Below, piece after piece: positions 3,060-50,562 of a stretch of 64,000 nt of DNA. How positions within the stretch are numbered: position 1 is the stretch's first letter; each line of letters begins with the position of its first letter. Made by a program: the position numbers and the translations under genes. The notes below the pieces were generated by a model. That model worked only from the letters and a program-made list of their open reading frames with translations, was not told the origin of the DNA and made no database searches. This DNA comes from an uncultured Actinomycetota bacterium (lineage in GTDB: Bacteria > Actinomycetota > Actinomycetes > CAVWCF01): positions 1,280,001 to 1,344,000 of the forward strand of contig CAVWCF010000001.1 of the NCBI GenBank assembly GCA_963753435.1. Direction: 5' to 3'.

Positions 3060-3914
3060 GTGCCCGTGACCCCCCGCGCGGCGGCCTTCTTCGATCTGGA
3101 CAAGACGATCATCGCAAGGTCCAGCGCCCTGGCTTTCAGCACGGAATTTGCCCGCGCCGGCCTCATCAACAGGCGGGCGATGCTGCGCAGCGCCCTGGCC
3201 CAACTCGTCTTCAGCTCTGCCGGCGCCGACCACGACCAGATGGAGCGCCTGCGGGTGGCAATGACCGAACTGGTCACCGGCTGGGACGTGGCGCAGGTCA
3301 GCGCAATCGTCGAAGAGACACTGCACGAACTAATCGAACCGATGATCTACGCCGAGGCCGCGCAGTTGATCGCCGCGCACCAGGCCGAGGGTCGCGACGT
3401 GATCATCGTGTCGTCCTCGGGCCAGGAGGTGGTGGCCCCCATCGCCAACCTTCTTGGCGCAGATGACGCCATCGCCACTCGCATGGTCATCGAGGACGGC
3501 CGCTACACCGGAAACATCGAGTTCTACGCCTACGGCCCGACCAAGGCGGAGGCCATCCAGGTCCTGGCTGCGACCAAGGGGTACGACCTGGCCGCCAGCT
3601 ACGCCTACAGCGACTCGATCACCGACCTGCCCATGCTCAACGCCGTTGGCCATCCGTTCGCGGTCAACCCCGACAAGGAGTTACGGCGCATCGCGATCGA
3701 CCGAGGCTGGGGCGTACTCGACTTCGCTACGCCTGTCGCCCTACGCCGCATGCCAACTGGCGAGGATGTGCGGCATCGCGTGACCGACAGCGCCCATTCA
3801 CTGCACGAACGGATGCAGGACATCCCGCGTTCCCAGCGAGTCGCCGCTGGCGTCGGCGTTGGCGTCGCCGCGGCGGGCCTGGTCTGGTACGCGTCGCGCC
3901 ACCGCCGCGTTTGA
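3060..3914 (+). CDS. HAD-IB family hydrolase (morphological differentiation-associated, Rv3661-like)
   Basis: FFDLDKTII motif I, SYAYSDSITDLPML, AVNPD; GTG 3060 close to a TATCCT -10 (probably leaderless). Confidence 0.9.
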   Translation: MPVTPRAAAFFDLDKTIIARSSALAFSTEFARAGLINRRAMLRSALAQLVFSSAGADHDQMERLRVAMTELVTGWDVAQVSAIVEETLHELIEPMIYAEAAQLIAAHQAEGRDVIIVSSSGQEVVAPIANLLGADDAIATRMVIEDGRYTGNIEFYAYGPTKAEAIQVLAATKGYDLAASYAYSDSITDLPMLNAVGHPFAVNPDKELRRIAIDRGWGVLDFATPVALRRMPTGEDVRHRVTDSAHSLHERMQDIPRSQRVAAGVGVGVAAAGLVWYASRHRRV

Positions 3915-3972
3915 CCGGCCGACACGCCGTCGGGGGGTTCCCTCCGACGCCGACGCGTACTAGGAAAGGTCC

Positions 3973-4160
3973 TGTCGACAAGCCGCAAGGCCCGCCGACA
4001 CACAACTGAGACCCGCTTTGGAACCCACGCGGCGGTCCCCCCACGTAACGGGGTGCAGGCGGAACCGGCTGGCCCGACCGTCCGAGCGACCCGCACGCAC
4101 TGTTCCCCAAAGCCGGATTTCATTTGCGGCGCCGAGTGCTAACCCACCCGGCGCCGCACC
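3973..4160 (+). ncRNA. Ms1 RNA homolog (RNA-polymerase-core-binding sRNA; scr3559/MTS2823 family)
   Basis: Non-coding gap between HAD hydrolase and Fic-like gene (known Ms1 synteny); GCTTTGG (~4015) can pair with CCAAAGC (~4107); ACCCACGC/GCACGC motifs; 3' hairpin 4125-4158; ends approximate. Confidence 0.75.
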
Positions 4161-47815: not shown

Positions 47816-48346
47816 TCAGCGGGAGTAGACCGGCGCGATAACCGCACGCGCGAGCGTGTGGAAGGTCAATTGAAAGCCGACCGCGGCGGCGCGCGCATCC
47901 CTGCCGACCCCCAGTGACTCACTGTCCACGGCGTGTACGGCGAACAGGTATCGGTGCGGGCGGTCGCCCGGCGGTGGGGCGCTGCCGCCGTATCCGCCGT
48001 TGCCGAAGTCGGTTGGGACGTGGAAGGCCCCGGCTGGCAGTCCACCGCCGTCAGCAGCACCGGCGCCGCGCGCCAGCTCGGTGACGGAAACCGGGATGTC
48101 GACTGCGAGCCAGTGCCACCAGCCGCAAGCCGTCGGCGCATCCGGGTCGAAGCAGGTCACCGTGAAGGACCTCGTCGCCGCCGGGAAGCCAGACCAGGCC
48201 AGATGCGGGGACTGGTTGCCACCGTCAAGGACGAACTCCTGGCCCAGTTGTGCGCCGTCGACAACGTCGTCGCTGACAACCGAGAAGGCGCCGACCGGAG
48301 GGAGCAGTTCGTAGGGGTTCGGTGCCACCGGTCGCTGCAGATTCAC
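47816..48346 (-). CDS. YbhB/YbcL (PEBP/Raf kinase inhibitor-like) protein
   Basis: DPDAP..GWWHW, YGG.APPPGD.PHRY; GGAGG RBS. Confidence 0.93.
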   Translation of the reverse strand: MNLQRPVAPNPYELLPPVGAFSVVSDDVVDGAQLGQEFVLDGGNQSPHLAWSGFPAATRSFTVTCFDPDAPTACGWWHWLAVDIPVSVTELARGAGAADGGGLPAGAFHVPTDFGNGGYGGSAPPPGDRPHRYLFAVHAVDSESLGVGRDARAAAVGFQLTFHTLARAVIAPVYSR

Positions 48347-48361
48347 CTAGGTCCTCCCGCA

Positions 48362-48568
48362 ATAGGTAGCGGGGCCCCTCCACGTATGAGGTGCAGGGGC
48401 CCCGCTGTGCCGGATCTCCGGCGGTGAGTTGGGCTTGCGCCCGCTCTTCCGCCCGAGGCCGCGGCCTCGGCTGACGCGAACCCTGCGGATAACCGTCCGG
48501 GTTTCCCCGGAGGTTCCCCCTCACCGTTCCGACCTAAGTCTTCTGGTGCGGTCCCGCCGTCAGGCGAT
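48362..48568 (-). ncRNA. Putative structured ncRNA, copy 1 (unnamed)
   Basis: TTGCGT-N18-TAGAAAT promoter pattern; CGGUGAG/CUCACCG closing stem enclosing GAAA and GCAA tetraloop hairpins; 3' hairpin with CUCAUAC loop; ends inferred. Confidence 0.55.
48368..48406. repeat. Palindromic hairpin copy 1 (loop GTATGAG)
   Basis: AGCGGGGCCCCTCCAC-GTATGAG-GTGCAGGGGCCCCGCT. Confidence 0.9.
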
Positions 48569-48636
48569 GGGAGATTTCTAGGGGCTACCGGTCGATGCAC
48601 GCAAGGGGTCCGGAACAAGAAATTCCGATGAATCTC

Positions 48637-48713
48637 GTATCCACACTCTTGTCCACACGGCGCCTCGCATGTGGCATTGGTTCCTCCACATCGAGCCCAC
48701 AGCGTCATCAACA
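48637..48713. promoter_or_regulatory. DnaA-box-like cluster
   Basis: GTATCCACA (48637), TTGTCCACA (48649, actinobacterial consensus), TCCTCCACA, GAGCCCACA, TCATCAACA. Confidence 0.6.
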
Positions 48714-48807
48714 AGCGGGTCGTACTCGGTTCGGCGTCGATCGTGACGAGACGCAGGCACCGTGTGTCGCTGCCAGGTTGGTCAAGCCGGTGCGGGCATT
48801 CTGATCC

Positions 48808-48842
48808 CCAGGCCCCTCCAGGTATGAGCTGGAGGGGCCTGG
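48808..48842. repeat. Palindromic hairpin copy 2 (loop GTATGAG)
   Basis: CCAGGCCCCTCCAG-GTATGAG-CTGGAGGGGCCTGG, perfect 14-bp stem. Confidence 0.9.
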
Positions 48843-48869
48843 CTAGTCCGCAACTCTTACCCTGCCGTT

Positions 48870-49829
48870 GTGAGCAATCTCGAGTCACGCCCGGCGGAGA
48901 CCGACTGCCACAGCGACGCGACCGGCGCTGCGGAGACTCTGGCTCCACGCGAGGTGCCGCTGGGTGGACCGCGAGCACTGACCGTTCGCCGCACCCTTCC
49001 CCACCGTGACCGTCGCATGGTCGGGGCTTGGTGCTTCGTGGACCACTACGGCCCGGACTCGGTACACGACGGTGGAATGTTCGTTCCCCCGCACCCGCAC
49101 ACGGGACTGCAGACCGTTTCGTGGTTGGTCTCCGGTGAGGTGCTGCACCACGACAGCCTTGGTTCCGAACAACTGATCCGACCAGGCCAGTTGAACCTGA
49201 TGACGGCCGGCCGTGGCATCGCACACGCCGAGGTGACACCGGCCGGTAGCACCGAGCAGTTGCACGGGGTGCAGTTGTGGGTGGCCCTACCCGGCACCGC
49301 CCGCGACACCGCCCCCGCCTTCGAGCACCACGCCGAACTGCCGACTGTGGGCCTGCCCGGGTGCGTGGCCACCGTCATTGCCGGCGATTTCGCTCGCGTG
49401 CAGTCGACGGCCACGACGTTCACCGACCTGCTGGGGGTGGAACTCGACCTCGCTGCCGGGGCTGACCTGGACGTCCCAGTTCGGCCCGAACACGAGCACG
49501 CTTTGCTCGCGCTGGATGAGGACGTGGCGATCGGAACGGCAACCGTGCCCCGCGGCGCCCTGCACTACCTACCCCCGGGGCCGGATGTGATTCGAGTGCG
49601 CAGCCGGACGGCATCCCGGGTGCTCCTGCTCGGCGGGCTTCCATTCGACGAGACCGTCGTCATGTGGTGGAACTTCCTCGGCACCGATCACGACTCGATC
49701 GCCGCTGCCCGTAAGGACTGGGAGGCAGCCAGCCCACGGTTCGGCGAGGTGCCGGGATACGACTCCCGGCTGGCTGCACCCGCGTTGCCGGGGACCCGGC
49801 TCAAGGCCAGGGGCCGAAAGCGGAACTAG
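48870..49829 (+). CDS. Pirin family protein
   Basis: VRRTLP, WCFVDHYGP, PHPHTGLQTV, MTAGRGIAHAE, QLW, MWWNF. Confidence 0.95.
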   Translation: MSNLESRPAETDCHSDATGAAETLAPREVPLGGPRALTVRRTLPHRDRRMVGAWCFVDHYGPDSVHDGGMFVPPHPHTGLQTVSWLVSGEVLHHDSLGSEQLIRPGQLNLMTAGRGIAHAEVTPAGSTEQLHGVQLWVALPGTARDTAPAFEHHAELPTVGLPGCVATVIAGDFARVQSTATTFTDLLGVELDLAAGADLDVPVRPEHEHALLALDEDVAIGTATVPRGALHYLPPGPDVIRVRSRTASRVLLLGGLPFDETVVMWWNFLGTDHDSIAAARKDWEAASPRFGEVPGYDSRLAAPALPGTRLKARGRKRN

Positions 49830-49858
49830 ATAGGAAAAGCCCAATCACGCCCGCTCAA

Positions 49859-50030
49859 CAAAAGGTAAGGCCCCTCCAAGTATGAGTTGGAGGGGCCTTA
49901 CTTTCGCGGCTTGCGCCACTGCTTCCGCTTCCAATACCCCCTGGCCGGATCCCTCCGGGCCGAGGCCCTTCCGGTTCTTGCCAGTCCCTTCAGCCGAGGC
50001 CTTCGGGTTTGGTGCACCTTCCGAGGAAGT
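49859..50030 (-). ncRNA. Putative structured ncRNA, copy 2 (unnamed)
   Basis: TTGCCC-N18-TAGAAAT promoter pattern; shares GCACCA, GGCCUCGG, GCGGAAG-N4-GGCGCAAGCC and the terminal CUCAUAC hairpin with copy 1; U-rich tail. Confidence 0.55.
49865..49901 (-). terminator. Palindromic hairpin copy 3 (loop GTATGAG), intrinsic terminator-like
   Basis: GTAAGGCCCCTCCAA-GTATGAG-TTGGAGGGGCCTTAC, 15-bp stem followed by CUUUU on - strand. Confidence 0.85.
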
Positions 50031-50098
50031 AGCCGATTTCTATCCCCTGCGGCGGAGGTAGGGCAAGACCTTTGGAGCAAGTTCTTGCTCCCGACGGG

Positions 50099-50163
50099 AA
50101 ATCCCCAATGTCATACACAGCAATCCAGGGCATATCCCCATCATGTCCACAGCTTGATGCACA
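50099..50163. promoter_or_regulatory. Degenerate DnaA-box-like cluster
   Basis: AAATCCCCA, TCATACACA, ATATCCCCA, ATGTCCACA, TGATGCACA, mostly 11-12 bp apart. Confidence 0.45.
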
Positions 50164-50259: not shown

Positions 50260-50562
50260 CTACTTGGTCTTGGTCACTGAGGTGAACGCCCCCGTGACTA
50301 GCGTGAAACCGTCCTTGGCGACCTTGACGCTGCCCGCCGCGATCGAGTCGATCGTGCCGGTGATTCCGGTTGCCATCTTCTGGGTGCCCTCCCGGACACC
50401 GTCGGTGGTCTCAGCGGAGACGCCCAGGCCCGACAGGACCGTGAACGGGATCTCCATAGCCGCCAGGCCGGTCTTCTCGACCGCCCCCATGCCCTGACGG
50501 AAGATTCCTAGGAACGCCTGGTCGGCGCTGGTGCTGCTCTTCTGCTTCGTGCTGGTGGCCAT
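50260..50562 (-). CDS. Hypothetical 100-aa amphipathic Gly/Ala/Thr-rich protein
   Basis: Strong RBS AAAGGGAGGTGG before ATG; GC3-biased codons; own terminator. Confidence 0.8.
   Translation of the reverse strand: MATSTKQKSSTSADQAFLGIFRQGMGAVEKTGLAAMEIPFTVLSGLGVSAETTDGVREGTQKMATGITGTIDSIAAGSVKVAKDGFTLVTGAFTSVTKTK

Follow-up and report, generated by a model that had tools for sequence, protein, structure and literature searches.

Antisense systems that kiss through a U-turn include ColE1 RNA I/RNA II and pAD1 par, and in protein sponges of the CsrB/RsmZ type, short hairpins sharing one type of loop form an array that can expand and that has a terminator hairpin at the end. In hok/Sok, pIP501 RNAII/RNAIII, bsrG/SR4 and bsrE/SR5, two RNAs come from opposite strands and make first contact at a small loop with a YUNR sequence, the motif of rapid antisense contacts (PMC6562991). 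SdsR/RyeA, the type VIII toxin-antitoxin system, likewise consists of two small non-coding RNAs from opposite strands, one masking the other (PMC8610362). Free-standing structured RNAs of 200–500 nt are known from actinobacteria as Ms1 (RF02566) and CoRP (PMC9130861, PMC11077062); Ms1 is syntenic with a gene for a HAD-IB hydrolase (PMC9130861), and CoRP is reported only from Corynebacterium and between tRNA genes (PMC11077062). The sepX-type promoters activated by WhiA/WhiB carry the WhiA motif GACAC(GCC) upstream of the −35 region in either orientation (PMC10243135, PMC13473873). Here we describe an RNA family that, by analogy, would work like the U-turn pairs and like SdsR/RyeA without being a member of either.

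The window, meaning the whole stretch of 64,000 nt analyzed here, contains three hairpins within 1.5 kb whose loops read GTATGAG on the plus strand (48384–48390, 48822–48828 and 49880–49886). Copy 1 (48368–48406, minus strand, loop CUCAUAC) has a stem of 16 positions with a single C.C mismatch at pair 4. The solo copy 2 (48808–48842, plus strand, loop GUAUGAG) has 14 pairs, and copy 3 (49865–49901, minus strand, loop CUCAUAC) has 15. The 7-mer alone is not enriched in the window (3 occurrences vs. 2.07 expected, with 35 of 100 shuffles reaching 3). A stem of at least 14 was found at only 3 of the 51 GTATGAG sites of the 2.17-Mb genome, the next best stem being 7, and GTATGAG is the commonest loop (3, all in this 1.5 kb) among the 40 genomic hairpins that combine a 12-bp stem with a loop of 7 nt. 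The three hairpins noticed in the sequence-only reading thus hold up as a set beyond chance. The changing closing pair described there is confirmed as C-G, G-C and A-T on the plus strand in copies 1 to 3. The genome-wide count proposed there as a check yielded these three family copies only, hence no high-copy repeat. Its statement that the stems differ and stay paired is correct for the pairing, whereas the inner stem GGCCCCT(C/G)CA is kept in sequence beyond mere pairing; 8 of 15 stem pairs never vary among 29 sequences. Not noticed there were the different nature of copy 2, a unit of another kind whose predicted transcription is from the opposite strand, and the sites of DnaA type and WhiA type described below.

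A search pattern with a fixed stem and an unconstrained loop detected the family in 73 of the 301 genomes analyzed for the class, at 1–3 sites each; the reversed control matched in 3 genomes. A collection scan matched at least 121 stretches, and among the matches listed, 79 of 80 titles were actinobacterial taxa. The loops at 75 of 90 sites were CUCAUAC (42), CUCAUGC (19), UGCCUAG (6), CUCGUAA (4), CUCUUGG (2) and two unrelated sequences, and the model search added CUCGUAC. Invariance of the loop, as claimed from the window, therefore applies within the genome itself and not across orthologs, since relatives carry the variant loops just listed. Within genomes, loops were identical in 27 of 27 multi-copy genomes. 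One family includes 18 genomes with two hairpins of differing inner stems, 16 having CUCAUGC twice, two CUCAUAC twice and none a mixed pair. The earlier suggestion that the loop is probably recognized is supported by these data, which indicate a loop under selection. The most divergent loops occur in genomes in which one copy was found, with a WhiA-type box in cis. Tandem copies of the family occur as well, and one member (locus L188 in genome G087) has a stem one pair longer and a GACACGC box in opposite orientation.

Rfam yielded nothing at the gathering score in the hairpin region and only chance-level matches by E-value; the same applied to ten relatives, with sodF_sRNA as the best match (E 0.12). 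The hairpin was not found in two MAGs of the same family (88% and 58% complete), and several families with large or very small genomes gave no match by pattern or model. These cases are to be read as "not found" rather than absent, as the model search scored 27–150 candidates per genome and one no-match family had a longer-stem variant. A pattern of the promoter plus 5′ end matched in 2 of 251 genomes across the phylum, which is uninformative because it missed the window itself. We found no description of the family in open-licence PMC and bioRxiv texts; supplements may contain the motif. Judged from sequence, the hairpins belong to a widespread, structured and undescribed actinobacterial RNA family that is without an Rfam model.

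Copies 1 and 3 lie at the 3′ ends of two long units on the minus strand. Unit B (48360–48568) is predicted to yield a non-coding RNA of ~210 nt in which short hairpins precede copy 1, its ends deduced from promoter and hairpin. Unit A (49857–50030) would yield a non-coding RNA of ~175 nt that closes with copy 3 and a U tract; its ends are deduced likewise, and a terminator scan supports it. The unit B promoter (48574–48604, minus strand) consists of a −35 element TTGCGT (48604–48599) and a −10 element TAGAAAT (48580–48574), and that of unit A (50036–50066, minus strand) of TTGCCC (50066–50061) and TAGAAAT (50042–50036). The promoter model R2, built from 35 relatives without the window sequences, had exactly these two promoters as its top matches in the genome (E 2.3e-9 for unit B, 1.5e-9 for unit A). 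The family promoter, TTGYG-N17/18-TA(G/C)A(A/C)(A/C)T, is located 138–621 nt, mostly 150–165 nt, upstream of the hairpin. It was found on the CUCAUAC strand for 114 of 169 hairpin rows, which include a few mis-registered duplicates, and for 87 of those 120 rows that have 500 nt or more of surrounding sequence. Compared with the usual TAnnnT, the conserved T of the −10 element is shifted one base downstream, and the genome has only five such promoter-like sites, two of them those of units A and B.

The segment 48360–48640 with unit B has a fold z of −4.46. The family model R1 scored 54.6 bits for unit B and 56.5 bits for unit A, mainly from the terminal hairpin, so the RNA bodies of the two units are divergent. 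Of the predicted tetraloops, 332 of 411 were GNRA loops on the CUCAUAC strand compared with 3 of 303 on the opposite strand, a near confinement that fixes the strand of the RNA. In an alignment of 29 short members, pairing is possible in 92% of the cells, and for 28 of 43 pairs both partners change, which none of 500 shuffles reached, the structure having been derived from the same alignment on which it was scored. The consensus fold of the body is branched and multi-hairpin. Unit length correlates with the number of GNRA hairpins (0.57). A complement of at least 5 nt to the unit's own loop, as needed for an internal pseudoknot, was present in only 6 of 111 units. Units of at least 570 nt occur at loci L004, L180 and L181 through tandem hairpin repeats such as CCGAGCGATCGG.

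Both long units are preceded by DnaA-type boxes on the plus strand. Upstream of unit B these are GTATCCACA at 48637, TTGTCCACA at 48649 and TCCTCCACA at 48682 (48637–48690), and upstream of unit A there are degenerate boxes at 50111, 50132, 50143 and 50155 (50111–50163). Counting with the DnaA box consensus, we obtained 329 boxes on one strand of 85 units, 70 on the opposite strand and 47 in the reversed control. The boxes are spaced by 11–12 or 20–22 nt, and the array lies 80–150 nt before the −10 element. When the upstream model was run on five other genomes, the interval between dnaA and dnaN was the best match in two and the second in one, the fourth had a match beside dnaB and the fifth only weak matches; the oriC matches cover the box part only. 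The predicted sites therefore form a phased array resembling oriC, and the long units are likely under DnaA control. Two further arrays of DnaA-type boxes in the same genome (G000, C5:198971-199056 and C1:1455720-1455784) precede coding genes and have no such RNA.

Copy 2 is not attached to a long unit. It follows a predicted antisense promoter on the plus strand (48762–48802), composed of the WhiA-type box GTGTGTCG (48762–48769) and the −10 element CATTCT (48797–48802), with a predicted start near 48809. Because this start is at the hairpin foot, the antisense RNA would begin with the GUAUGAG hairpin. The box, which reads GACACAC, has GTGTC at 48764–48768 (GACAC on the minus strand), 28 nt before CATTCT, and this is the modal spacing in the family. 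In 47 of 162 loci, GACAC was located 40–49 nt beyond the hairpin (background 0.04 per 40 nt). Of the 54 loci with a box, 34 have an antisense −10 element, compared with 8 of 109 other loci, and in 27 of these 34 it lies at a distance of 28 nt from the box; a sense-strand −10 element was present in 5 of the 54. As predicted sites, GACAC(GCC) boxes thus stand at a fixed distance before the −10 element. A search of five genomes with a pattern of the hairpin plus GACACGC performed no better than the control.

Copies 1 and 3 are without a WhiA-type box. Across the family, 19 of 28 solo hairpins have the box, as do 40 of 137 long units, and 49 of the 60 genomes examined have at least one boxed hairpin, leaving 11 without any. 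When a boxed solo is present, long units also carry a box in 3 of 20 cases, compared with 32 of 50 cases otherwise. A boxed solo was found in 17 genomes, 14 of which belong to the family with the 18 two-hairpin genomes mentioned above, so that the counts are not independent and the A-to-G change of the loop may be a single event; the other three, our genome included, belong to three further families. For the majority of genomes, there is an overlap between the antisense promoter and the end of the long gene. In the window, as read from its layout, it has moved to the solo copy 2, where it would serve two long units. Unlike many solos, copy 2 has no U tract, and for this reason it may be a mere leader of the pirin gene. 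In related genomes, a solo cassette of ~100 bp, with the hairpin and a WhiA-type promoter, lies directly behind htrA in both orientations (L041, L079 and L156 vs. L040, L042, L043, L065 and L158), pointing to an inversion, perhaps a repeated one.

The pirin gene (48870–49829, plus strand; PF02678, PF05726) lies between copies 2 and 3, its start codon 27 nt behind the end of copy 2. It is likely transcribed from the antisense promoter, and the copy 3 hairpin may stop this transcription as well. On the other side, a gene of the YbhB/YbcL family (47816–48346, minus strand; PF01161, TIGR00481; ribosome-binding site GGGAGGA at 48358–48352) begins 21 nt after hairpin 1, a gap too short for a separate promoter. 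This gene is likely reached by read-through from unit B, and one RNA contig extends across the hairpin as far as the gene. An ORF of 100 amino acids upstream of unit A (50260–50562, minus strand) has no match in Pfam or NCBIfam, and RNA contigs overlap it in several runs. Pirin and the YbhB/YbcL-family gene are not conserved neighbors of the RNA, and neighboring genes in general are not conserved across the families that carry it.

Nineteen metatranscriptomes from 17 studies contain 5–12% of the words of this region. In 5 of 8 runs, RNA contigs overlapped unit B at a depth of 2–5.5, with a cover no better than that of neighboring genes and with contigs extending past the predicted ends; unit A had no contig in the 8 runs. 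As all of these are contigs without strand information, from runs chosen because they contain the stretch, they cannot rank or delimit transcripts. One contig ends at 48366, the foot of hairpin 1, and others cross predicted ends. For the complementary RNA, there is a strong promoter signature and no matching transcript was resolved in the contigs. The predicted transcripts are neither shown nor excluded by these metatranscriptome contigs. In runs X1, X3 and X7, contigs cover 48570–48811 between copy 2 and unit B, outside the predicted transcripts; one of these ends with an adapter at 48811, and DNA carry-over or read-through may be involved.

We consider it somewhat more probable than its negation that a sense/antisense RNA system of two parts with kissing loops, split in trans at this locus, has these hairpins as its common end-piece. 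DnaA would set the level of the long hairpin-array RNAs, which have copies 1 and 3 at their ends, and WhiA/WhiB would fire the plus-strand antisense RNA that starts with the copy 2 hairpin. The complementary loops CUCAUAC and GUAUGAG would kiss through a YUNR U-turn, and the division-linked antisense RNA would thereby neutralize the replication-linked long RNAs, either by inactivating them or through lost 3′ protection. A YUNR sequence (CUCA, CUCG, CUUG or CUAG) is present in the loops CUCAUAC, CUCAUGC, CUCGUAA, CUCGUAC, CUCUUGG and UGCCUAG; the exception is an unclassified hairpin in genome G114 with the loop CUCCUAC, which has CUAC only. A full duplex with the solo partner was calculated at −69.1 vs. 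−62.4 kcal/mol for unit A and at −66.3 vs. −67.0 for unit B. Since unit A gains only 7 kcal/mol and unit B gains nothing, the seven loop pairs would have to carry the contact.

The most speculative element is the function of the long RNA itself, which would bind a protein in many copies through its array of GNRA hairpins, an array that can expand; as its length varies by the addition of such hairpins, a multi-site protein binder appears a likely role. Taken further, and here we are tentative, the pair might form an RNA-only cell-cycle switch. A DnaA-driven array RNA would restrain division, or a division factor, during replication until the WhiA/WhiB-dependent antisense hairpin kissed its terminal loop and cleared it. 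The antisense gene could move away from the locus and act in trans on several copies; at the present locus it would also head the pirin message.

Other readings of the same observations have to be weighed against this one. The identical loops within genomes could instead stem from recent duplication or from a shared binding protein, and pairing in cis fails to explain why the CUCAUAC loop and the stem are conserved throughout the class, which leaves room for a protein reader. Loop and stem would then be read by an RNA-binding factor or a nuclease, possibly one that recognizes anticodon arms, the long RNA would be a decoy or sponge and the antisense promoter secondary. The 7-nt loop begins with CU and is identical in six of seven positions to the tRNA-Met loops of the genome, the variant CUCGUAA equals the loop of tRNA-Thr(CGU), the inner stem is conserved in sequence as described, and one shared protein would also hold the loops of a genome identical. 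We nevertheless regard this as unlikely, because no loop matches tRNA-Met exactly (the host loops are CTCATAA, 3 of 3), UGCCUAG and CUCUUGG do not resemble anticodon loops, there is no cloverleaf, no conserved nuclease or toxin neighbor was found among 68 proteins flanking family loci, and the positioned antisense promoter is left unexplained. The host loops and the variation among orthologs also speak against the mimic of tRNA-Met, or nuclease decoy, proposed in the sequence-only reading, which had itself named loop variation among orthologous copies as a refuting outcome; the anticodon likeness is better explained by the shared YUNR U-turn motif. Another of its proposals, a REP-like element with a RAYT transposase, fares no better, as the genome has three copies within 1.5 kb and no Y1_Tnp domain (PF01797 was not found in the 98% complete genome; the control matched in 6 of 14). 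More generally, the idea of a small mobile DNA element with a palindrome recognized by some transposase or recombinase is largely refuted and very improbable. It would accord with the lack of conserved neighbors, the tandem copies and the solo cassette in both orientations behind htrA, but there are only 1–4 copies per genome, transposases and integrases number zero among the 68 flanking proteins, and none of the viral contigs, plasmids and phages searched contained the hairpin.

Rather improbable, though with more in its favor, is that the locus acts mainly as DNA: an array of DnaA boxes for titration or as a reporter, with an outward promoter, the hairpin serving as a two-way terminator and 5′ stabilizer and the WhiA promoter driving or silencing neighboring genes. 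The likeness of the arrays to oriC, the widely varying length of the RNA body, the position of solo copies before genes such as pirin and PAC2 and the weak expression evidence are all compatible with this, whereas the covarying multi-helix body with its strand-specific GNRA loops is not accounted for, a terminator does not need a fixed loop, and distant paralogs with differing stems keep the same loop. We find it harder still to believe that the loop is an sRNA seed, as the sequence-only reading also suggested, which would pair in trans to mRNAs, perhaps where a start codon lies in a GUAUGAG context. Its complement does contain AUG, and three genes have GTATGAG at a plausible start, but this is an unremarkable number of sites, CAU is lost in several loop variants, and a stem of 14–16 bp exposes seven bases only.

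The kissing sense/antisense pair, which we prefer, differs from the U-turn systems in that the family is chromosomal, with no toxin ORF and no plasmid replicon. Its antisense RNA would start at the hairpin that closes the 3′ end of the sense RNA, the partner gene can move to a position in trans, and the promoters carry DnaA-type and WhiA-type sites. A type I toxin-antitoxin system was rejected, as there is no conserved small toxin ORF; 95 of 114 long units are without a closed ATG ORF of at least 15 amino acids, GTG and TTG starts not being counted. With SdsR/RyeA the likeness is one of layout. There is no sequence relation (no Rfam match), and phylum, structure and regulators are different. 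Compared with the sepX-type promoters, which share the motif and its placement, the predicted product here is an antisense hairpin RNA and not a division gene. Like the CsrB/RsmZ sponges, the family has an expandable hairpin array, but its loops are GNRA and not GGA motifs, and the partner protein is hypothetical.

Ms1 differs by its synteny, whereas the present family is without synteny, has DnaA arrays and can be multi-copy. RF02566 did not match at the locus, the best matches in the genome scoring 17 bits elsewhere against a cut-off of 162, and the HAD-IB gene of the window (TIGR01490) ends at 3914, 44 kb away, with no HAD protein among the 68 flanking ones. Directly after that gene, where Ms1 is normally located, at 3915–4150 on the plus strand, lies a candidate Ms1 RNA with the WhiA-type sequence CGACACGCCG just upstream and a short C-rich hairpin behind; the Rfam Ms1 model did not detect it. 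CoRP and scr0792 are set apart by their reported range and synteny (PMC11077062). 6S RNA was rejected because the consensus is branched rather than a single rod with a central bubble, and there was no Rfam match.

How replication and division are coupled in actinobacteria has yet to be settled; the links known so far are proteins. If our reading is true, a conserved RNA pair would be wired to both DnaA and WhiA, and a link through RNA could be tested directly. The window's split layout, with two long units and one solo antisense hairpin, would allow the sense and antisense parts to be mutated separately, unlike in the overlapping layout. Even if the mechanism should prove wrong, a widespread structured RNA family without an Rfam model remains.
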